Below are positions 3,001-54,400 of a stretch of 64,000 nucleotides of DNA, piece by piece. The position numbers and the translations under genes were made by a program. A model generated the notes under the pieces. The model did not search any database and had not been told where the DNA came from. It saw only the letters and a program-made list of their open reading frames with translations. This DNA is from Giardia intestinalis (lineage: Eukaryota), in NCBI GenBank assembly GCA_000002435.2, contig CM018793.1; one strand, written 5' to 3'. How positions within the stretch are numbered: position 1 is the stretch's first letter; every line of letters begins with the position of its first letter.

Positions 3001-6000
3001 GACAATGACAAGAATAGCAAGAAGCCACATAATAAGTTGAACGCGGACGCTTGCGTTTAGCCGCGTGGTGTCCAAAGGAAGTAGTGGATCGGAGTGCTTG
3101 AGGAAGTAGTCCGAATACTGATGGAGAGGCTCCATAAGCTTGGAGAACTCACCCTTGTAGTATGAAAGATTCTGCCCATGTGATGGATAGGCTTTAATCA
3201 GGTCAAAAATTTGCTTCTGGATGTACACAGGCAGGGTAGAGGCTGTCCAGGTATCCATGTAGCGCGGAACCCGCGTGTAGACGTGAGTATTATACATTGG
3301 CACAGAAGGGTTCCAATGGGGATAGTAAGCATTGACATTATTGATTGCATCCTTGAGTTCTTTAAAAAAGCTATTGAGGGGTCTGATGTAATTATCAGGA
3401 AGATGGGATATACCAACAAGCATGCTATGAATCTTGTCAATAGTTTTAATGTGTCTGTCGAGGTTTCCAAGAAATGTAGCGAGCCCGTCCAGCTGCCTTA
3501 GTGGGGTAATAAATATCAACGAAAAAAAGATAGTAATAACCATTAGGTAAATAAGCCCCTCGATCACCTTCCAAGGGATAAACGAGCGTTTCTGAGTTAT
3601 TAGCTTGATGGCGCCCCTTGCCTTGTTGCCCCATGTGTTGACCAAGGCATCTAGATATTCAACCCGCGTGACACTAAGATATATAGCATTAGTAACAGGG
3701 TTCTTCTTGATGAAGCGTGAATTCTGTACTGTTGTAATTGTTCTCAGTCGTTTCATCTCATTCAGCTGATCTATATTTGATGCGTATTTCTTGATCTTAC
3801 CTCGCTCTTTGTCTAGGCCAGCGAGAACTCTCTTGCAGACAGTACCTGGCACGTTGAATATAAACTGTGCATCCTTCCCCACCAGAGGCCTTGTCTCGGC
3901 TGTTCCTATGCGCAGGCTAGATTCAACAATGAATCTATCGTCATAGACTGTCCGATCGTTCGCGAAGAGTGGATAGAGGATACGAGAGAACTTCTTTAAA
4001 GAACAAAACTTGGCCAGTACCTCATAAGAACGATATATCGTTACCTTGTTGACGTTATGCTTTATATAAAACGGAGTCCCGTCGTTTGATATAACTAGAT
4101 TGGTGTTTTTATACTTGTCTAGGAGGCGCCGATAATGGTATGAGTCTAGGGGAACGAGGGGCAAGAAGACTAGAAGCATTAGATGGAGAATGGTATGAAT
4201 TGGGTCATGCTTGTGCCGCTTCTGAATGTTTCTAAAAGAGCTGATTACTCCGTCAAATGAAGAGTGAAATTGGCATAGCGAAAGGAAGGCAAAATTGATA
4301 TCATTGTGCTGTTCCTTATAGATCTCTATGAAAAGTTGAACTATTGTTTGCGTCATAGCTAGCTCGCTTAGCTGTATGTCGCTGGTGATCTCGTTGGTAG
4401 ACCCAAGGATACTGCGCATGTGTATCTTTGCCAAGTGGAACATGGCAAGCGCTGAAGTGCGTGGAACTGAGCTGACAGTCTTTATGGCGTTTGTAAAAAG
4501 CTTCTGCAACTCGAGGGATTTGGCTCCTGGGATACTTGAAGATCTAGGATCTTTGGACACCCTCTGCCTACGTAGAAGATTCTGCTCGGGGTTCAGTTTG
4601 CCGCGGAGAAGCCTCATGTTGTTCGTCCAGGTAGCTATGACTGATGAGCCTGGCATAAGCTTTTCGTCTACCGAGATCGCTGTCACATGGGATTCTAGAA
4701 TGCGAAGATGAAGCTTTTCAATTGTCGCATCAAAGCTAGCAGCGGCTTCCTCGTCAAGGCCTCTGTCGTTGCCATTTTTCTTCATAAAAGGGTGGAGTTT
4801 GTCAAAATATTCGTCCAGCCTCGTTTGCATGTGACTCATGAGTGAATCCTTGTTTTCCAAAACGAACTTCACAAACTCCTCCTGGCTCTCACGCTTAAAG
4901 CAGATATCTTGCTGAAAGAGATTCTCAGCATCAGTGGATGTAATCCCAAAATTTAATAGATCCCCTGTTTCCTTTGCCACTGTTGCTCTATTGTTACATA
5001 TGCTTAGCAGTAGAGAGTAATATAAAAGAGCAATCACATAGGGATTCGACCAGTGAGCCTCCAGGACAAAACATATCTCTCTGATGAAACAATACTGGAG
5101 CACATTTGAAGAGCTAAAAACCTTTTGGCCTGAGAAAGTAGTGTGCAGAATCTTGTATTTGTAAAAGTTACTAATATATGCGCAGACTACTAGGACATCC
5201 TCAAGTCGACGAAAGTAGAGTCCAGGGTTTTTAGTGGGAGAAAGACCCCTTCTATTGTTGTGATCGCGCATATATGATTTGATCAAGATCTTGTCTAGAA
5301 ATGTTAAGCGATTGAAGTCAGCAAGCATTTTGAGAAACGAGAGCACAGGGACGTTTCTGGCTGCATTGAGCCCTTGGAAGTCACGGATATACTGCTCAGA
5401 ATTGTGTAGCCTTCTAGTTTTTTCAAATATTCGCCACTCCTTGGCGACCTGCTTCTCGTGAAGAAGCTCTGTAAACTTCAGGTCCACATAGTTGCCATGT
5501 TCATCGTATTCAGTCCTCGGGAGTAACGGTACAGATATTACTTCAGTTCCACGTGTGAAGTGGAACTGCAAAGGAGCAGACTGACTGTTGTCTCCTTTAG
5601 CTTGTGACATCTGGTATGCCCCAGTGTTGCCCACTCGTTTGAAGTTGGTAACGGATATTACTGGGGAAAAGGCATCAGCTCTCGAGTGTGCATGACGCGA
5701 CCACTGATCTGACTGGATAAGCCTGTCTCGGTGCGACCGCGAGTTCAGATACGCTCTTCCTGAAATGCGCATAAACGGATAGCTGACTAAAATCCAAAGA
5801 AAGTAGAGCAAGGTTGTCAAAGAAAGAACCAGTTTTGAAGAGCTGCTCAACGGAGCCATAATTTCCACCACCGGAAAAGGCTCAGAGTTCGCCAGTTGTA
5901 AGTCCTCGCTTCTATGGGTATATCCGTGGCTATTGGCCTCATAGCTATTCTCATCTGCAGCTCCTGTACCATGGGGAACCACCTGCGTGCTTGCACGAAC

Positions 6001-23053: not shown

Positions 23054-24805
23054 CTATGCCTTTCCGCGGCACAGGAACCACCAACACAAGAAGCCCACAA
23101 GACCACCAACAACAACAATCACAGCAACAGAGATGCCCGCGATCGCGCCGGTAGAAAGGCCACTCTTGTTGACGCTTCCGCCGTTGTCAGTGCCATCCAT
23201 CTTCACATAGCAGGTGACAGAACCGCTATCACCAGATGGTGGAGCACAACTCACGCAATTGGTCACGCCAGTAATTTGGCTGTCACTAGCATCACACTTC
23301 ACACACTTTGTTCCAGACTTATAGTACCCAGAGAAGCAAGTTTGACACTGCTGTGTCTGTCCTGCTGCGCACGTCTTGCAGGTGGAGTCGCACAGCGGGC
23401 ACACTCCGGTCCCGCTGTTTGGGTTTTGTCCATTCGCACATGTTTGGCATTTCCCTCCACTGTCAGTCGTGCAGATGCTTTTCCCGGGGAGCCTCGTCGT
23501 CTGGTAGCACCCGCCCTCCTGGATGAAGTATCCGGCGGCGCAGGCCGTGCAGGCACCGTCAGCGGCAGTGGTGCAGAACCGAGTCCTGGCCGCATTGCTC
23601 GTGCAGACGCCATTGAGCGGCACGTTGCTCCCCTTGCACTTCGAGCAGTACTTGGTACCTCCAATTGTTAGGCCGCACGTCTCGCACTCTGGACCCTCCA
23701 CGCATTGCTCCACGCACGTGCCGTCTGTAGGATTGCTCTCGTCGGCGTACCTCAGCATCTTCCCGGCGGGACAGGCCGTGCACTTGGAAGCGCCGGCCCC
23801 GCTGCACTCCGCACAGGAGGGGTCGCAGGGCCCGCACGTTTGCCCAACCGCGTACGACCCGGCCGGACAAGACGCCAAGCAAGCGTTCTTCTCTGGAGTG
23901 AGGAAGTAGTTACCTTGGCACTTTGTGCACGTCTGCTTGTCATCCGAGCACACCTCGCAGTTGGGGAGATTGCAATCAGGGGCGGGGACTCCGTCGCATG
24001 TGTTAGTCTCAGAGTTTGGTGTTCCCTGAGGGCACGCGGTGTAGCATCCTCCGCTGTAGAGGTAGGTGCTCCCCTGGCACGCCTTGCAGGTCCCGTCGGG
24101 GGCGTCCTGCGGCGTGCACTTGTCCTGCCCGTCCTTCGCCTGGCACGCCCCCTCGACCGGGACGTGGGTGGCCTGGCACTTCACACAGCGGGTGCCTGCG
24201 TCCTTCTTCTCACACTTTACGCAGGAGGCTTCACAGGGTTGGCAGACCCCGGCATCTGCATAGGTCCCGTCGGGGCACGCGGCGTAGCATCCTCCGCTGT
24301 AGAGGTAGGTGCTCCCCTGGCACGCCTTGCAGGTCCCGTCGGGGGCGTCCTGCGGCGTGCACTTGTCCTGCCCGTCCTTCGCCTGGCACGCCCCCTCGAC
24401 CGGGACGTGGGTGGCCTGGCACTTCACACAGCGGGTGCCTGCGTCCTTCTTCTCACACTTTACGCAGGAGGCTTCACAGGGTTGGCAGACCCCGGCATCT
24501 GCATAGGTCCCGTCGGGGCACGCGGCGTAGCATCCTCCGCTGTAGAGGTAGGTGCTCCCCTGGCACGCCTTGCAGGTCCCGTCGGGGGCGTCCTGCGGCG
24601 TGCACTTGTCCTGCCCGTCCTTCGCCTGGCACGCCCCCTCGACCGGGACGTGGGTGGCCTCGCATTTTGTGCAAACCTCTTTTTGCTGGCCATTTATATT
24701 GACATCTAGACAGTTATTTCCAGATGCACAATTTTGAGAGTTGGTGCACGATTTTGGATCTGCAAGCGCCAAGTAAGCGAATGCTAAACCTGCCAAGTAC
24801 AACAT
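23054..24805 (-). CDS. Variant-specific surface protein (VSP), 583 aa from first ATG
   Basis: The track ORF 23054..24826 begins with GTG. The first ATG gives MLYLAGLAFAYLALA, a signal peptide. The mature protein is rich in CxxC motifs and contains a GGCY motif. It ends with a TM helix and the invariant Giardia VSP tail ...FLCRGKA followed by a stop. AGTAAAC lies 8-9 nt after the TAG. Confidence 0.9.
   Translation of the reverse strand: MLYLAGLAFAYLALADPKSCTNSQNCASGNNCLDVNINGQQKEVCTKCEATHVPVEGACQAKDGQDKCTPQDAPDGTCKACQGSTYLYSGGCYAACPDGTYADAGVCQPCEASCVKCEKKDAGTRCVKCQATHVPVEGACQAKDGQDKCTPQDAPDGTCKACQGSTYLYSGGCYAACPDGTYADAGVCQPCEASCVKCEKKDAGTRCVKCQATHVPVEGACQAKDGQDKCTPQDAPDGTCKACQGSTYLYSGGCYTACPQGTPNSETNTCDGVPAPDCNLPNCEVCSDDKQTCTKCQGNYFLTPEKNACLASCPAGSYAVGQTCGPCDPSCAECSGAGASKCTACPAGKMLRYADESNPTDGTCVEQCVEGPECETCGLTIGGTKYCSKCKGSNVPLNGVCTSNAARTRFCTTAADGACTACAAGYFIQEGGCYQTTRLPGKSICTTDSGGKCQTCANGQNPNSGTGVCPLCDSTCKTCAAGQTQQCQTCFSGYYKSGTKCVKCDASDSQITGVTNCVSCAPPSGDSGSVTCYVKMDGTDNGGSVNKSGLSTGAIAGISVAVIVVVGGLVGFLCWWFLCRGKA
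24005..24700. repeat. 243-bp (81-codon) tandem repeat, ~2.7 copies, inside the VSP coding region; copies 2 and 3 are identical
   Basis: Track ORFs at 24066, 24309 and 24552 (+) and at 24231/24474 (-) give identical peptides spaced exactly 243 nt apart. On the coding strand the unit ATHVPVEGACQAKDGQDKCTPQDAPDGTCKACQGSTYLYSGGCYAACPDGTYADAGVCQPCEASCVKCEKKDAGTRCVKCQ is repeated. Confidence 0.85.
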
Positions 24806-46065: not shown

Positions 46066-46881
46066 ATGGAAAGATACCCCAGACAACGGTTAGACGACGG
46101 CAGGTGGCAGTGCGTGGCACGGCCGCAGTACAGATACTCCTGCGCCATCTCATGCCTTGTGAGCATATTCAATCATCTCTTCAACAGAGACATGACCCTG
46201 GACGAGTGTATTGCTATTCTCTTTCCAGACCTGAAAGAAGACCCACGACACTATGATTTTGGACCTCAAGCTTCTAACAGTGCTGTTCAAAGCTGGTTCA
46301 AGACCCTCTGCATGCACTATGGCCTTTCTGGCACCTCTTGCACGATATACAAGGAGCAGGGCAGAACGAGAACTGCGTGTAGCAAGCAAGAGGCACTTAA
46401 GAATATCATCTCTGCTTTGAATACGCCAAGATGTGCGTTACTGTATCACTGCTTGAACCATTACTGCATAATCGTAGGCTATATAATAAGTCCATCTACG
46501 CCTAATAGACCAAGTAATCATTGCGTCTTCAGCGGGGATGATGGATGCACCCTCAAGCTCCTGTGTGCAGACGGCACAGAAGCCGAGGACGTGGACGATA
46601 GTAATATTTGGTTAATAGTGGCAGACTGTGGGAAAGGAACTGCTCCCCTTAGGTCACTGACCTGGGAATTTGTACATAAAGATATATCTACCCGACCTCC
46701 GTATGCATATAACGCTAGGTGCCCTGAGAGAGGACTGCTAAGGAAAACAGAATCAAAGGGATATATACCAGTTGAGATAGACTCAGTGCTTGTTAACAGC
46801 ACGGGAGTATCCACCTGTGTTAGATCTGGTGGCGTCATCAAGGGATCGTCGCACTGCATCATTGGATTTGTTAGTGACTAG
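46066..46881 (+). CDS. Papain-fold cysteine peptidase-like protein, resembles the phytochelatin-synthase (C83) catalytic core (271 aa)
   Basis: QYRYSCAISCLVSIFNHL aligns with the PCS active-site block PAYCGLASLSVVLNAL (Cys, Leu, Asn and Leu conserved). CLNHYCIIVGY resembles the PCS His block GHFSPIGGY. This is an assignment by motif only. Start is a true ATG; the gene is divergent from ELF1 across a 79-bp spacer. Confidence 0.35.
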   Translation: MERYPRQRLDDGRWQCVARPQYRYSCAISCLVSIFNHLFNRDMTLDECIAILFPDLKEDPRHYDFGPQASNSAVQSWFKTLCMHYGLSGTSCTIYKEQGRTRTACSKQEALKNIISALNTPRCALLYHCLNHYCIIVGYIISPSTPNRPSNHCVFSGDDGCTLKLLCADGTEAEDVDDSNIWLIVADCGKGTAPLRSLTWEFVHKDISTRPPYAYNARCPERGLLRKTESKGYIPVEIDSVLVNSTGVSTCVRSGGVIKGSSHCIIGFVSD

Positions 46882-48619
46882 AGCCCCGTTTATTACTCCC
46901 GGACGAAAGTATAACTATTAACACCACAAGCACAACGATAGCTCCAGTAGAGCAGAGCCGAAGCACTTGAGGCAGCGAGGCCTCCAAATACCCACATAGA
47001 ACGTCACAGATGATAGCTGTCCATGTCGCAATGACAAGGATAACGGGAAGGTTGAGACAGGCGAGGGCGTCCATCTGGTACGTTGTACTTTGGTTGTTGA
47101 ATATTGAACTGTTGTAAGTGTTGATTTGCTGGGTATATCTATTGCTTATGTACCGAAAAAGGGCATTGCAAACGTCATATATTGCATCTATCTGATGAAC
47201 ACAGACCCCAGTTTTTTGAAGATTTGCAAGTCTTCTTTGTGGTGGGGCATTCATATATGAATAAGAGCAGACTTCTCCGCAGGCAAAGGACATGGACTGA
47301 ATGGCATGCTCGTAACCAGTTAGGTCCAGTGCTTTGGTTCGTGCATAGTATTTAAAGACCTTCTGAAGAAGGATGGTTTGAAATAGGGTCGTCCTGTCCA
47401 CACAGTCCAGGCAGTTTATCCGCGGATAGCACTTCTGAACAAAGTCAGGAAGAGCAACTCCGACATCACCGCTAGGAACTAGAACTGTGCTTGTGGCTAT
47501 GTCATCTGCTAACTGGTGATACTCTGTGTTGCTGTGTCTACGTATGTTGTAGTTCATCAACTTAACGTTGAGGGAGTTCTTGCGGCGAGAATCAGCAGTT
47601 TTTCTCATAGACTCGGTAAAGAACGCCGTCAGAGCCCGCTCATCGGCGGTCTCAAGGCTTTTCTTTTCACTGGCAGCAATGGAGTCATCCAAAAGATCGA
47701 CTTCATTTTTGAGGAGGTTGACGATAAGTATCTCTGCGTCTGCAGTCACTAAGTTACCCAATAGAAGGCTTATATGCCTTTGCAAGAGACTACTAAACTG
47801 AGCGAGGCCCTGCTCTTCATGAGCCCCATCTGGGAAGCGTATGGCAGGAGTGAACTTGTAAGTTGGTGGCTGACTGAAGATAAGCGGGAGGGAGCCCCTA
47901 AACAGGGTGTAGACAAGAGTAGCGTTATAGTAAAGACGAAGCCTTGCTGTGTTGGCTGTGTACCCTGCCGAACTAATGCCCCGGTTGAAATACCTATGCC
48001 CTGCATTATCGATGCATCGCTCCATCCGAAGCGATATGTAAGAGGAAGGGCCAATCATCCACTGCTCATAGAAGCCGCTGAAAATATATGCCATGCATTC
48101 CCCGACGATAGTCTCTAGTCGCAGCCTGGGGAGTTGCTCTGTGCTTGTAATTTGTGATGGATAGAGATGCCTGTTCCAGCAGTATGAGTCGTCCGGTGAA
48201 AAATGTCGGGAAGTATCGATGTAGCATTGACGACAAACATCTGCGACTGCATTGCATAAGAGGAAGTGGACGTACTTATCTATCGCATTTGCATGCAGCA
48301 CTATTATGTTATCGACCCGTAATGGATAGCAAGGTGTTCCGTCTTCAAGGGGCGGATGAGGAGAGATGCGCTGAGCAGTTGAAGAATGGGCTTCGATGAA
48401 ACTGATGGCTGGCACTGCGGGTTTGCACACTAGTGGAAAATTATAGCCAAAGATGCGAATAACGCCCAGGAAGAATACATAATTGTCTACAAGAGTGGCC
48501 TTCTTTAGTACATCCAAAGGAGGAGGCCCGTACACTAGTGAGGAATCCGATCGTGAAAAGGAAATGCAATGGTGAGCACGGCGCAGATAAATGTGCGTCG
48601 GGGTCGAGAGAAGTTCCAT
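46871..48619 (-). CDS. SAC1: Sac1-like phosphoinositide phosphatase with C-terminal TM helices (582 aa)
   Basis: The Sac-domain motif HRYFNRGI (RxGxRYxxRG) is present. The catalytic CX5R(T/S) motif RINCLDCVDRTT resembles RTNCMDCLDRTN. Two C-terminal hydrophobic segments are present (LNLPVILVIATWTAIICDVLCGYL and GAIVVLVVLIVILS), as in Sac1. Its 3' end overlaps the 46066 gene by 11 nt. Confidence 0.85.
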   Translation of the reverse strand: MELLSTPTHIYLRRAHHCISFSRSDSSLVYGPPPLDVLKKATLVDNYVFFLGVIRIFGYNFPLVCKPAVPAISFIEAHSSTAQRISPHPPLEDGTPCYPLRVDNIIVLHANAIDKYVHFLLCNAVADVCRQCYIDTSRHFSPDDSYCWNRHLYPSQITSTEQLPRLRLETIVGECMAYIFSGFYEQWMIGPSSYISLRMERCIDNAGHRYFNRGISSAGYTANTARLRLYYNATLVYTLFRGSLPLIFSQPPTYKFTPAIRFPDGAHEEQGLAQFSSLLQRHISLLLGNLVTADAEILIVNLLKNEVDLLDDSIAASEKKSLETADERALTAFFTESMRKTADSRRKNSLNVKLMNYNIRRHSNTEYHQLADDIATSTVLVPSGDVGVALPDFVQKCYPRINCLDCVDRTTLFQTILLQKVFKYYARTKALDLTGYEHAIQSMSFACGEVCSYSYMNAPPQRRLANLQKTGVCVHQIDAIYDVCNALFRYISNRYTQQINTYNSSIFNNQSTTYQMDALACLNLPVILVIATWTAIICDVLCGYLEASLPQVLRLCSTGAIVVLVVLIVILSSGSNKRGSSH

Positions 48620-48741: not shown

Positions 48742-50541
48742 ATGGGAAAAGATCCCCTTTTCATCGTCACAAGACTGAATAATGCCCAGCTTCTTGTAGA
48801 GCAAGGAACGTTGAACGTCGGGCCAGACTTCTCTGTTGAAAGTAACTGGCACTCCATTGACTGGTTCAAAACTCAAAGCGAGCGGCTCTTAGAAGTTATC
48901 CCCCTTAATAAGAAGAACCTCATATGTTGTATTCTATCAACTCAGATTACTTGTATAGATATCACTACAAGTGGACGGCCCTGCTCTCTTTCGCTGCAGT
49001 CGCCTATCTCTCATTATTGTTATTATGAGTACCTTCCAATGTGCCTCTTTCTGGCAATCCAGACGTCTGATGCTCTCAGAGTTTATAAACTCGTTTACGA
49101 AGGCCAGCAGCCATACTTCCAGACCATATATGAGTTCCCCAGTGATCTCCTTTTAGGCTTGGGAAAGATCATGACCATGTCGATGTGTCCTGACTTCCTC
49201 GCTATCTGCACATGCGTTTACCCACACGGGAAGCGTAGCGCCCTTACAACCATCAACGTGTTCCATATTTTGGATGATAGGTGGTCTTCCAACGCAGAAG
49301 ATAGCAGAGAAACTAAGGATGACGGCGAGTCAAACCCCGGCCCTGGGTCTGTCTCGACCACTGCCTTCCAGCTTCTAGGCCGCCCTAAGACAATTCAATT
49401 TGATAAGGCGTCTCAGCTCATAATCGTCCTCAAGCGGAGCGAAACATACTACTTCTTCAGATACAAGTTTTTCTCTGAGCTCACAAGCGAAGGGGCACCT
49501 GTTGTCCGCGGAGAGCTTCTCTCTGAACCGGCCACTGGCATGCAGTATCAATTCCGCTCATGCATTAGCAAGCACTCAATTCTATATGCAGGCCGTTATC
49601 CCAACTATGTCTGTATAGAGTGTCGCCGGAATCCTCGGAGCTTCACCTTTGCTGCTCATTGTGAGTTCTCCAGCGAACGCGAAGTAGTTGGCGTGTCTAA
49701 TACCCCTAACGGATCTTTTGTTGCGGCTGTTGACCCTAACAGAACCCACATCGACCTTTACTACAACTTCTGCTTTTGCGCAAGCATTCAACTTGTTGGA
49801 AAGGGTGGGCCCATACAAAAGGGCTCAAAGCTTCTGGGGTGCTGCATCCTCCCGGAGTCCTACTATCTCTTAGCCTACACATCTACGGGCCTCATGGCCT
49901 TGTACTGTATCCAGAACTGCTCATATGGCTTATTCCAGGTCAACAGGACATATACTCTTCCCCTGGCATCGTATGCCATTGAACGCACGCGTCGCTCACT
50001 CCTTGTTCTTTATGATACGCACTATCTCTACCTCTACATAAAGCCTACCGATGATATGGACTCTCTAACCTCGGCCACGGCGTGGTGTCCTAACCCCGCT
50101 CACGTCGCCGCTTACCAAAAGATCTTTACGGATGAGCGGGGGGCCATGGAAATCGCTGGCTTCACAACAGGAGTTGCTGGCGATAAGTCCATCATAAATA
50201 TCACCCTCAAATTTAAGACGGACGAGTCGTTTGTGGTAACGCTAGATCTAGAAGATGGAGACTTCGTGCCCGATAGCCTTACCGCAGCTATTGCCAGCAC
50301 TACTGCGCGCATAGAGAGCACAGGAGCCCAGACGGCGGTCCATAATCTCAGTCCACAGAGTCCAGATACAACCGCAGCCCCTACCAGTACTAGCATACCT
50401 GCTCCTGATTCTCGAATCTGCAATACTACTAACCCAAACACTTATTTAGAAGACGAGCGAGAGCAAGTCCAGAGCGTTCTATCTTCGATACCCACATCAG
50501 AGCAACCACCAGCTGACAACACTGACACCCAAGTAGCATAG
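48742..50541 (+). CDS. Hypothetical protein (599 aa) containing a 2A-like DGESNPGP motif
   Basis: Complete ORF with a true ATG and an AT-rich upstream region; divergent from SAC1 across a 122-bp spacer. No family motif was recognised. The C-terminus is Thr/Ser/Pro-rich. Confidence 0.6.
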   Translation: MGKDPLFIVTRLNNAQLLVEQGTLNVGPDFSVESNWHSIDWFKTQSERLLEVIPLNKKNLICCILSTQITCIDITTSGRPCSLSLQSPISHYCYYEYLPMCLFLAIQTSDALRVYKLVYEGQQPYFQTIYEFPSDLLLGLGKIMTMSMCPDFLAICTCVYPHGKRSALTTINVFHILDDRWSSNAEDSRETKDDGESNPGPGSVSTTAFQLLGRPKTIQFDKASQLIIVLKRSETYYFFRYKFFSELTSEGAPVVRGELLSEPATGMQYQFRSCISKHSILYAGRYPNYVCIECRRNPRSFTFAAHCEFSSEREVVGVSNTPNGSFVAAVDPNRTHIDLYYNFCFCASIQLVGKGGPIQKGSKLLGCCILPESYYLLAYTSTGLMALYCIQNCSYGLFQVNRTYTLPLASYAIERTRRSLLVLYDTHYLYLYIKPTDDMDSLTSATAWCPNPAHVAAYQKIFTDERGAMEIAGFTTGVAGDKSIINITLKFKTDESFVVTLDLEDGDFVPDSLTAAIASTTARIESTGAQTAVHNLSPQSPDTTAAPTSTSIPAPDSRICNTTNPNTYLEDEREQVQSVLSSIPTSEQPPADNTDTQVA

Positions 50542-50654
50542 ACCAGCTATCAGACACACCACCACCTGTAGGAGACAGAAGAAGACCGAATGAGAAGTCT
50601 TATCTCTAGGATCCAGAATTAAAGGTAGTTCACTCATTGCAGGGACTAGTGCAT

Positions 50655-50843
50655 CTAGTCAGCCTTAGCACACGGGCAATTCGGCCCGCACTTGCAGTCA
50701 GCAGACGGATTCCCAGGCTTGCACTTGCAGCTAGGCCCACATTTGCACCCACCATTGTCACAGCAGCCACCACTAGGGTTTGCAGCCACCGGTGCCTTGT
50801 TACCACAGCCGCAGCCACCACAGCACGCTCCAGGAGTAGACAT
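50655..50843 (-). CDS. Metallothionein-like small cysteine-rich protein (62 aa, 14 Cys)
   Basis: MSTPGACCGGCGCGNKAPVAANPSGGCCDNGGCKCGPSCKCKPGNPSADCKCGPNCPCAKAD. It has CC, CxC and CxxC motifs, is Lys/Gly/Pro-rich and has no aromatic or His residues. The track ORF starts at GTG 50891; the first ATG, 50843, is preceded by AAATAAAATG. Confidence 0.55.
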   Translation of the reverse strand: MSTPGACCGGCGCGNKAPVAANPSGGCCDNGGCKCGPSCKCKPGNPSADCKCGPNCPCAKAD

Positions 50844-51425
50844 TTTATTTGCCGAAGTTTCTAAAAAATAGTTTAAACTATTTTGCAACACGTTGTGCGG
50901 GGGCTTACGGGGCCAAGAGGTGCGAATTCAAAGTTGGCAAGGCCATCTGTGAGAGTAGACAGGTTAAGATGCCTAGGAGTGTATTTTCCCCAGAAGTCCT
51001 GGTTAGAGTAGAGCCTAAATGAACACGGAAAGCCTTATTGTTGTCGTTAGCCAAGGTAGCTCTTGCTTATTTCAGCATTTTGGGATGCGGTAGTACATTG
51101 AAGCCCGTTGGTTCGGCCTGCTAGAACGAAAAAGGGCTGCGCTGTCCAAAAGATTTTATGGTCAGCAAGAAAAAATATTCGATTCCGAGTATCTGTAGTC
51201 TGCAGGAAGCTCAGCACCTAGACTTTGACCTGAAAGAAGCGCCCGCTGAGTTCTAGAGGCCCTCTCGTGGCGTTCTTGGTCTACCTAGCATTGTCAATAC
51301 CAGGCGACAGCTAAAGCTTTAGCGCCCTGATTCTTTACCTGGGTGCCTATCTGTGATATAGTTAACCGTTTCTGAGCATTTCCCACACCTGTAGTAAATT
51401 GCTTTTTTATCTGACTGGCCACGGA

Positions 51426-54400
51426 ATGGAACCAATGGAGACGTCTCAATCACAAGGCACAGACAGCAGTAACTTGGACCGGTGGTTTACAGCAGTTGCC
51501 GAGCGGCAGTACAACTTTATCATAGCAGAGCTGCCGACTTTCAAGTGCTCCAAGAATGCTCACGGTAACACAGCACTAATAGAGGCAGTCTTCCTTGCAG
51601 ACGAACCTGCAGTTCAAATTCTTGCTGCACATGAGTTTGGCTGTAGAAGCGATAATGGAAAGACCGCTCTTGAAGTTGCTTATGAGGTCGGCTTTGTAAG
51701 AGCGTGCGACATTCTTGCTCAGTTTGAGATGGAAGCCCTACATGCGCGTGGAATTTTCCTTTGCCACAGAGCTGTATCTGATGGAAACCTTCCTATGGTG
51801 AGATCTCTTTCACCTTTTTCCATCAACATCGTCCAGCCTACTACGAACCAAACCGCACTGGACTTAGCAATTCGCTTGCCAAGCTCTGACGCAATTATTG
51901 AGGAACTGGTGAATATCTCTGCCATAAGCCTAGAGACGCTTGATCAGGCTTGTAAAACAGCCAGCGAGACTCGAAAAGTCCATGGAGATCGATCAATATT
52001 AGAGCTCCTGCTCATATTTCGCAACAAAAAGGAAGCGAATGCATGCCAACGCTGCGGATGTTTACGAAAGCAACTTATTTATTTGTCATCCCAGTTTCAT
52101 AGGCTCTATTCCAATTTCAGTAACCCATCGAAGGGCGCACAGTCAAGGAGTAACAATAGCTCTCGAAGTTCAAGCGTAGAAGAAGACCTTGCAGGACGGC
52201 AACGGAAGCCACAAAGACATCGGGGCAAAGGGCTTGGTGCAAAGCTTAGTAATCAGGTTTCTGGTGATGCAAAAGAGCACAGCACATCAGACGGCTCAGA
52301 GCATGGAGCGGTTCTGTCCTTTTCTTTGACGCGAGGCTTTGAAAAGCTACGCAGCATGCTTCCCAACGCTTCATTTGACCTAAACATTGACGATAAAGTG
52401 CTCACTGAACTGCTACACTTGTCTAGAACCATGAGAAGGGAGATCTCCTCATTGCGAGAAGACATAGCTCGTAAAAACGAGACTATAGCACAGCTACAGA
52501 GAGAGCTAGGGACTGACAAAACCGACAAACCCGAGTCGTATACTGATGGAAAGGAGGAAGAAGAGATAGAAATTATTCTTAGACCTCACAGTGGGCGCAG
52601 CTGCGCATGCAGTGGAGAGACCAGGGGAGCAACTCCGAAGGAAATTGTGGACACACTAGAATCCAAAGGTTCAAAGAAGTCAGCGGGAAATACAACCAGT
52701 TCTGTGACTGAGTCCAATAATAAGCTTTTAGAAGAAGCCATTGCAGCTATAAAAGCGAAGGATTTGTATATAAATTCTCTTCTCGATGAAAACGACAGTT
52801 TGAAGAAAGGTGCTGCTGAACTAGATACTAGTTCCTATCAAGAGATGATCACGTCTCAGCAGGAACAGATAACCCATCTTATAGATTTGCTATACCAATC
52901 CAAGGCAGCGCTCGAGAAAATGAGTGAGGTCGAGGTGCGTTGTAGCACACTGGAAGACGACAATTCTCTCCTCCGTCAACGGATACAATGTTTGGAAAAA
53001 GCACCACAACAAGACGTGCATCGGGCCTCTGTTGTTCATAAAGGGGTATCTGCTATAGAATCAAGTTCCAGCTCTCGACACACTAACTCTTTGAATAATC
53101 CGGCAGCAGAGCGCATACAGCATTTAGAAGCTACCATAAGGTCTCTGTGTACTGAACTGGACCGTCAAAAGCTGCGTGCACGGGAGTTCGAGAATGATAT
53201 GCAGACACTGGCTGCTGCTAGATCCCACACAGAGATGCTTAAGGAAAAAGTGCTGTGCCAACAGGACGAGATTAAGCGTCTTAACGAGGTGATTGGGGTA
53301 CAGCAGAATTACTTGGAACTAAAAGAGATAGAACTTACGAAGATGACCAAAAGCCTCGAAGAGTTGGCTTTGAGCACAGAGAAGAATAACGAGAGTAAGG
53401 AGCGCTCGGTCTGTGAATCTAGCGCAGATCCAAGGCGTGCTTTTGGATGTGAAGACTTGAAGGCAGCCATACCAAGTGATTCGCCGAGTGCTCCGCGCAG
53501 ACTTTTACGGCGTGCAAACTCCTCACGTCCAGCAACGAGTAACGCAGGAGAGTCCAGACAAAGGCGTGAAGAATCGATACACGTAGCCGTGGACGGTTCT
53601 ACTCGAAGTGGACGTGCACTAAGCGCCTCTGTGGGCCATCGACAGACGAGCTCAGACATGACACTCTATGACCTGGAGTCTACTCCGACCCCAGTCCAGC
53701 GCCTACATAACCAGGAAGTGTCGAGTGAGCTTGTCAAGGAAATGGTGCACTCAGTGATGCAGAGTAGCCCTAGTCTCAAGATACAGCACCCAGGAAACCA
53801 GAGCTCCCTACTCCCCACTCCCTCGTCTGCTAGCCACGCGAAGCCTCCATCACTTGTGCGAGGAGCCCCAGAACTACAACGAAGCAGCTTACAAACACCA
53901 CGCCAACGAAGAATCAGCAACAAGCAACAAGTGGTGGCAATAGCGGCGTCTAGCGCGGCAAACATTGCTGCAGCGCGTCAGGCACTCGGTATGTCAACGC
54001 CGACCACCATTGTCACTGATGCTGCACGCCCTCCCAGTCAGGGTGTGAGTCGATCTACTGGTTCAATTAATCGTGGAGGATTAACCAAACTTATGTCTGC
54101 AGCTATAAGAGGCGACCTAGTGACAGCTAAAGCCTATTTGAAGCAGGACGTTGGGCTCCAAGATGTTGAAGGAAGGTCAGCTTTGTTTTACGCTACGCTC
54201 CACAACCATCCGAGCATTGTCAGAGAACTTGTTTCACGAGAGGCTCTTCTGTCAACAAATAGAAAATACAAGGATGGAGCAGGCGTCACGGCTTTAATGG
54301 TTGCTGCCCAGGAAGGCCACAAGGAGTGCATCAAATTGCTGTATCGTGCTGAGAAAGATTGCAGAACAGTAAGAGGAAAAGGTTGCATTGATTTTGCCAA

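Follow-up and report, generated by a model that had tools for sequence, protein, structure and literature searches.

Metallothioneins are classically proteins of less than 10 kDa that lack histidine, and the stoichiometries of the mammalian domains are M(II)3Cys9 and M(II)4Cys11. In the plant type 1 and type 2 metallothioneins (PF01439), two Cys-rich ends flank a Cys-free spacer of about 40 residues, the N-terminal end carrying CC-xx-C-x-C and the C-terminal end a CKCGxNCxC-like string. Operationally, metallothioneins have been defined as small proteins (≤300 amino acids) with 15-35% Cys and less than 10% aromatic residues (PMC7216689). Among ciliates, the copper-thioneins of Tetrahymena subfamily 7b are built on the motif CKCXXCKC, contain essentially no CC clusters and place most of their Lys residues beside Cys (PMC1808422). 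A 2019 survey of GenBank gives Trichomonas, Naegleria, Trypanosoma and Entamoeba as the protist genera with metallothionein-annotated proteins, and Giardia is not listed there (PMC7216689). Here we analyze a stretch of 64,000 nucleotides of the Giardia intestinalis genome (GenBank assembly GCA_000002435.2, contig CM018793.1), referred to below as the window, in which an earlier note made from the letters alone had pointed out a clean open reading frame (ORF) for 62 amino acids on the minus strand at 50655-50843 and had called its product metallothionein-like. The ORF list and the translation agree with that description of the frame, which runs from an ATG at 50843-50841 to a TAG at 50657-50655 and encodes MSTPGACCGGCGCGNKAPVAANPSGGCCDNGGCKCGPSCKCKPGNPSADCKCGPNCPCAKAD. 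An exact-sequence look-up identifies the product as the hypothetical protein GL50803_0028477 of Giardia intestinalis WB C6 (XP_001709416.1, KAE8305009.1, UniProt A8B698). The gene model is already annotated and is not new; it is the function that lacks annotation.

A conserved cysteine-rich protein

The WB protein contains 14 Cys among its 62 residues (22.6%), along with 12 Gly, 8 Pro, 7 Ala, 6 Lys and 5 Asn, and has a predicted molecular weight of 5786 Da and an isoelectric point of 8.2. It is entirely free of Phe, Trp, Tyr, His, Leu and Ile, and the first four of these are also missing from all orthologues. The Cys residues lie at positions 7, 8, 11 and 13, at 27, 28, 33, 35, 39 and 41, and at 50, 52, 56 and 58. 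They form two CC pairs (starting at residues 7 and 27), five CxC motifs (11, 33, 39, 50 and 56), one CxxC (8) and two CxxxC (35 and 52), and four of the six Lys residues adjoin a Cys. The Lys/Gly/Pro-rich chain of the earlier note, with its 14 Cys in CC, CxC and CxxC arrangements and neither aromatic residues nor His, is thus recovered by direct counting. A 62-codon ORF with an ATG is unremarkable in itself, since 150 ATG ORFs of 50 or more amino acids occur in the window. The Cys content of this one is the highest among them (median 2.9%, 95th percentile 7.3%); the next-highest, at 13%, belongs to a genuine variant-specific surface protein (VSP).

Syntenic 62-codon orthologues occur in the assemblage E isolate P15, where the gene is annotated as GLP15_4449, in assemblage B GS_B (L005 4911-5099, minus strand), where the site is unannotated in the NCBI record, and in two further Giardia lineages assembled from the Sequence Read Archive (SRA; ERR3333380 and ERR3333381/SRR17450160). 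In these four the orthologue sits between the orthologue of GL50803_0014677 and an ankyrin gene, and a 62-codon orthologue is also present on B-like metagenome contigs. We compared five lineages, namely A (WB), E (P15), B and the two assembled from the SRA. No indels separate them, and the TAG stop is at the same position in all. Seventeen of the 62 amino-acid columns vary, yet every one of the 14 Cys is invariant (hypergeometric P = 0.006), even with TGC/TGT switches in 9 of the 14 Cys codons. Variable nucleotide sites are distributed 12/13/37 over codon positions 1, 2 and 3, and the pairwise ratio of non-synonymous to synonymous substitution rates (dN/dS) is 0.06-0.29, with dS reaching 1.3. 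Of the differences between WB and P15, 12 are synonymous and 3 non-synonymous (Fisher P = 9e-7). The coding sequence is 92% identical to that of P15 and 86% identical to the B-like one, compared with 71-79% and 59-64%, respectively, in the flanks. Purifying selection on the GL50803_0028477 frame is shown by these data, and the locus is a real protein-coding gene; the preservation of frame and Cys codons in other Giardia assemblages, which the earlier note had left to comparison, has been found.

The gene is also abundantly transcribed. Sequencing of poly(A)+ RNA from WB trophozoites gave GL50803_28477 mean values of 890, 845 and 966 transcripts per million (TPM) at 48, 60 and 96 h (PMC4670223 Table S2; Ansell et al. 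2015), which correspond to ranks 206, 229 and 171 of ~9,800 gene models (PMC4670223). A transcript, the other check that the earlier note had named, is therefore on record at ~900 TPM and a rank of ~200, in a library without strand specificity. The convergent neighbour GL50803_14677 is not among the rows down to average rank 2,059 (~70-80 TPM), beyond which lie 7,750 lower rows (PMC4670223 Table S2). The signal of GL50803_28477 is more than 10-fold above that of this neighbour and so is not read-through from it.

Within the protein, the Cys residues fall into an N-terminal and a C-terminal block separated by a linker (Table 1). The C-terminal block comprises a CC pair and two CKCGPxCxC units joined by KPGNPS; its Cys residues, the Lys residues of the CKC triplets and KPGNPS are invariant. 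The two units are identical at 19 of 27 nucleotides, which is consistent with an internal duplication. Having no Leu, Ile, Phe, Trp or Tyr and no hydrophobic segment, the protein cannot contain a signal peptide or membrane segment, and by default it should be cytosolic. The AlphaFold2 model shows no confident fold (mean predicted local distance difference test score, pLDDT, of 53.8); as weak, non-diagnostic evidence, this would fit an apo-thionein.

By composition, the protein is one that falls within the definition of a metallothionein: in size (62 amino acids, 5786 Da), in Cys content (14 of 62) and in the lack of Phe, Trp, Tyr and His in WB and the orthologues, as well as in its CC, CxC and CxxC motifs with Cys residues that are invariant across lineages. 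With the metallothionein superfamily it further shares the organization into Cys blocks around a Cys-free linker and the lack of a targeting signal. It differs from the superfamily in having no match to a curated family or a solved structure, and its metal binding is only predicted. The Tetrahymena subfamily 7b proteins MTT2, MTT4 and TpigMT-2 likewise have Cys-Lys-Cys doublets and Lys beside Cys. The spacing in the Giardia protein, however, is CKCxxxC[KP]C (CKCGPSCKC and CKCGPNCPC) as opposed to CKCxxCKC, and the protein has two CC pairs, is much shorter and shows no detectable sequence homology to these thioneins; the likeness is a resemblance and not membership. The layout also recalls that of the plant type 1 and 2 metallothioneins, a likeness that serves as a lead only, whereas the spacer is 13 residues long in Giardia as opposed to ~40, the number and distribution of Cys differ, and the PF01439 model gives no hit at E ≤10.

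Proposed function, points against it and an outside relative

We lean towards a metallothionein-type mechanism for GL50803_0028477, in which metal binding, the identity of the metals, cellular location and biological role are all predictions from the protein sequence and its conservation. The gene is small, restricted to the Giardia duodenalis species complex, and transcribed constitutively and at a high level. Its product would be a cytosolic, largely unstructured chain of 62 residues. The thiolates of its 14 invariant Cys residues would wrap soft metals into metal-thiolate clusters, holding Zn(II) and/or Cu(I), and Cd(II) when present, with the 4-Cys N-terminal block and the 10-Cys C-terminal block joined by the variable Cys-free linker. 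By analogy with the mammalian domains, 14 Cys would hold ~4-5 divalent ions or more Cu(I), and the CKC-rich pattern, set beside that of Tetrahymena subfamily 7b, offers a weak hint of a preference for copper. We propose that, in the reducing cytosol of this microaerophile, the protein would take part in metal buffering or detoxification. It could also supply sacrificial thiols or a redox sink to a cell that lacks glutathione; free cysteine, not glutathione, is the main thiol of Giardia (PMC3916229), in agreement with the earlier note.

Several observations weigh against this proposal. A Pfam search at E ≤10 with the WB, P15 and B-type proteins returned no family, the Metallothio* models included, and a profile search of PDB chains at E ≤10 gave only a spurious alpha-amylase and no solved metallothionein; because the composition filters of HMMER disfavour Cys-rich matches, these results mean no detectable homology and are not proof of none. 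With no match to Pfam or to solved metallothioneins, the assignment is made from composition, and the family would be a new one. The term metallothionein-like in the earlier note thus stands as far as it describes composition, whereas the relationship to a curated family or a solved metallothionein that it might imply was not detected. The five CxC motifs are only marginally more than in shuffled sequences of the same composition (P = 0.06), and it is therefore composition and conservation across lineages, not the arrangement of motifs, that carry the case. Transcription is unchanged across growth phases, and the gene is not differentially transcribed (PMC4670223). The same library was primed with random hexamers and is not strand-specific (PMC4670223), so that the strand of the transcript is read from the initiator, the stop, the poly(A) signals and the frame. 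The gene identifier was not found in one deep proteomics supplement, whose listing is possibly incomplete (Emery 2018). Giardia muris does not have the gene at this locus. Finally, the one relative outside Giardia carries a signal peptide; in that protein the module in common would have an extracytosolic role, perhaps that of a disulfide-rich domain.

This relative, P0031, is a metagenomic protein of 254 amino acids. When 1.84 billion representative proteins were searched exhaustively with an HMMER profile, only the Giardia cluster and P0031 (E = 9e-8) were returned, and there was no match to an annotated protein of G. muris, Spironucleus, Trichomonas or any other organism. A word-indexed search for homologues that used a motif profile added no relatives, a scan of IMG/VR found none, and a scan of JGI metagenomes recovered only P0031 again. 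Within the window, tblastn of the peptide gave no paralogue and nothing better than E = 0.02. P0031 was found on contigs from three metagenomes. Besides numerous small ORFs on the same strand, these contigs encode a sigma factor, a metallophosphoesterase and a dCMP deaminase; some of the products have PHROG matches, and the contigs look phage-like. The protein begins with a signal peptide, continues with two tandem copies of C[KA]CGxxCKCKPGxxSxDCKCGxxCPCxK and ends in a Pro/Arg-rich C-terminal half. Aligned without gaps to Giardia residues 27-61, the copies are identical at 24 of 34 (71%) and 21 of 32 (66%) positions (BLASTP E = 2e-12 and 2e-10). Unlike the Giardia protein, P0031 has no counterpart of the N-terminal block and no CC pairs. 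Because DNA identity between the two is 64-69% and third codon positions are saturated, the likeness is not due to contamination or recent transfer. The module may plausibly have been inherited from a common ancestor or transferred, and convergence in low-complexity Cys/Lys/Gly/Pro sequence is a possible explanation as well.

A fuller version of the proposal would make GL50803_0028477 the first diplomonad metallothionein and the founder of a new family confined to the G. duodenalis complex. Its 10-Cys module would share ancestry with a phage-like secreted protein through horizontal transfer, in either direction, and the protein would be a major, highly expressed thiol and metal buffer. We offer this version tentatively and consider it rather unlikely to hold as a whole.

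A serious possibility, short of probable, is that this real and conserved Cys-rich protein has a main job other than the storage or detoxification of metals. It might be a thiol or redox buffer or a reservoir of cysteine, a docking module with structural zinc or of an Fe-S type, or a membrane peptide palmitoylated at the N-terminal CC/CxxC. The evidence that the gene is real applies equally to such roles, and the lack of homology to known metallothioneins speaks for them. Expression is constitutive and not stress-linked in the one data set, and KPGNPS, the GP pairs and the Lys residues of the CKC triplets are kept more strictly than a generic chelator seems to need. The same 34-residue module is found in a secreted phage-like protein, and a protein thiol pool is plausible in Giardia, which has no glutathione. 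The composition and motifs nonetheless fit the definition of a metallothionein point by point. In any cytosol, proteins with so dense an array of thiolates take up Zn and Cu avidly, and as a matter of general chemistry metal binding would accompany any other role.

Strand, frame and origin of the ORF

It is very improbable that the ORF is untranslated, that is, that the transcript is non-coding or antisense, or encodes a plus-strand product, and that the Cys frame is a by-product of GC/TGC-rich sequence. Three further frames are open over the same positions, the RNA-seq library is blind to strand, and no peptide evidence was found in the proteomics supplement noted above, whose listing may be incomplete. 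A wobble-sharing antisense frame at 50692-50871 on the plus strand is open in all lineages and has a low ratio of the proportions of non-synonymous and synonymous differences (pN/pS 0.17-0.30); for a short ORF rich in Cys and Gly codons, dN/dS by itself does not suffice to assign the strand. In a six-frame test, however, pN/pS is lowest for the annotated frame when WB is compared with P15 and with B, and the wobble-sharing frame has no ATG in any lineage examined. The plus-strand ORF of 75 codons, which opens on TTG, has a pN/pS of 1.4-2.6 in the same test. This result speaks against the alternative that the locus is the antisense of a plus-strand gene, and it upholds the view of the earlier note that the opening of the opposite strand from 50637 to 50864 is an artefact. 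Moreover, the frame has been kept without indels at dS values of up to 1.3, all 14 Cys have persisted through synonymous codon switches, and an Rfam scan of 50300-51450 gave no family match.

The expression signals point to the minus strand as well. Only the annotated frame has an ATG, and it has the invariant initiator, the constant stop position and AGTGAA on its own strand. The ATG lies in the AT-rich initiator that the earlier note had described (aaataaaATG), and AAATAAAATG is invariant in the five lineages, whereas the surrounding flank is only 59-79% identical. From this conservation and from general knowledge of Giardia initiators, we infer a promoter function for the AT-rich initiator region, which further includes a conserved T run and the CAAAATAGTTT block (Table 1). 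Downstream of the stop, the conserved hexamer of the polyadenylation signal is AGUGAA in the transcript, the commonest such hexamer in Giardia; GUGAAC has also been reported (PMC3610916).

That the ORF is a decayed fragment of a VSP or high-cysteine membrane protein gene is effectively refuted: although Giardia genomes are full of genes for Cys-rich surface proteins and one VSP lies in the window, the Pfam VSP model (PF03302) that recognizes this true VSP finds nothing in the ORF at E ≤10, the motifs are CxC and CC and not repeated CxxC, there is no signal peptide, hydrophobic or membrane segment or VSP tail, tblastn in the window detects nothing better than the value given above, and purifying selection acts on what is a single-copy, syntenic gene. 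The 243-bp spacing of the weak tblastn hits inside the VSP, at 24025-24123, 24304-24366 and 24547-24609, suggests that the VSP contains an internal tandem repeat of 81 codons.

The locus, its annotation and its significance

The features of the locus and the other genes mentioned here are collected in Table 1. Between GL50803_0028477 and the divergent ankyrin-repeat gene lies an intergenic region of ~0.55 kb (50844-51398), which is probably long for Giardia. It holds only short, unconserved ORFs when a bacterial start rule is applied. A 78-amino-acid version of the protein starting at GTG 50891 was rejected; it follows from a bacterial start-codon rule, and the additional upstream stretch is not conserved as protein between lineages. 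The tryptic peptides expected of the 62-residue protein include MSTPGACCGGCGCGNK (N-terminal), APVAANPSGGCCDNGGCK, CKPGNPSADCK and CGPNCPCAK.

Table 1. Coordinates of the GL50803_0028477 gene, its parts and flanking signals, and of other genes referred to in the text. Positions are those of the window unless a contig is named.
Feature	Position	Strand	Remarks
CDS GL50803_0028477	50655..50843	-	62 codons + TAG; 14 Cys; exact sequence match
N-terminal Cys block, residues 7-13	50805..50825	-	CCGGCGC, 4 Cys; Cys and the two Gly between C8 and C11 invariant in five lineages
Cys-free linker, residues 14-26	50766..50804	-	GNKAPVAANPSGG; most variable segment, 8 of the 17 variable columns
C-terminal 10-Cys block, residues 27-58	50670..50765	-	CC-x4-CKCGPSCKC-KPGNPSAD-CKCGPNCPC
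Putative proximal promoter region	50844..50886	-	AAATAAA abutting ATG, with upstream conserved T6 run and CAAAATAGTTT block
T6 run	50863-50868	-	TTTTTT, invariant in five lineages
CAAAATAGTTT block	50875-50885	-	CAAAATAgTTT, nearly invariant in five lineages
Polyadenylation signal AGTGAAC	50628..50634	-	starts 21 nt after stop; AGTGAA invariant in five lineages
Antisense open frame, 75 codons	50637..50864	+	TTG start, no ATG; composition artefact, not a gene
GL50803_0014677	48742-50541	+	convergent downstream neighbour; exact-sequence look-up
'Suppressor of actin 1', SacI domain	46871-48619	-	next gene beyond GL50803_0014677
Ankyrin-repeat protein gene	ends 54455	+	divergent upstream neighbour
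VSP, 583 aa	23054-24805	-	13% Cys, signal peptide; Pfam PF03302, E = 1e-115
P0031, 254 aa	L004 1237-2001; L013 2911-3675	+	metagenomic contigs
Called +1-frame gene in SRA assemblies	L006-L008 and L010, ~4886-5077 / 4900-5091	-	

In G. muris the gene order is kept (Elf1, Sac, the GL50803_0014677 orthologue and two ankyrin genes; CM016926.1, L009 9698-9703). There, only 4 bp separate the GL50803_0014677 orthologue from the ankyrin gene (TAG CAAA ATG), and the tblastn comparison proposed in the earlier note found no homologue in the 17.7-kb syntenic locus. The gene and its ~0.9-kb intergenic setting are therefore absent from the syntenic G. muris site, so that the gene was either gained in the G. 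duodenalis lineage or lost in G. muris.

Searches of the full-text literature with the identifiers GL50803_0028477, A8B698, XP_001709416 and GLP15_4449 returned nothing relevant. No paper in the literature searched names GL50803_0028477 or a Giardia metallothionein, the matches being to host metallothionein, electron microscopy tags and analogies, and this fits the statement of the earlier note that no metallothionein belongs to the usual description of Giardia. The gene was not found in the supplements of the Ansell 2019 structural annotation or the Tolba 2013 transcription start site sequencing, and Einarsson 2016 provides a coordinate match only. The metallothionein reading of GL50803_0028477 thus appears in no paper found, the gene model itself being already known. 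Nor did the literature searched contain a description of how Giardia buffers zinc and copper in the duodenum.

The locus also holds a lesson for annotation. The gene is missing from the GS_B record, and in the Logan assemblies of SRA data (L006-L008 and L010) the automated caller took an overlapping +1 frame of 63 amino acids ('MAAVAVV...') and not the Cys-rich frame. With orthologues left unannotated or miscalled in this way, searches of protein databases miss most of them.

If metal binding is not confirmed, GL50803_0028477 would be an ordinary lineage-specific small hypothetical protein; if it is, the protein would represent a new, lineage-restricted family of metallothioneins. As an abundantly transcribed, strictly conserved and G. 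duodenalis-specific gene, it offers a concrete candidate for the buffering of zinc and copper. The gene could bear on the tolerance of oxidative and nitrosative stress and on responses to thiol-reactive or metal-linked drugs. Should the fuller version of the proposal prove true, the protein would be relevant to how Giardia handles zinc and copper in the gut and to the action of thiol-reactive or metal-dependent drugs.

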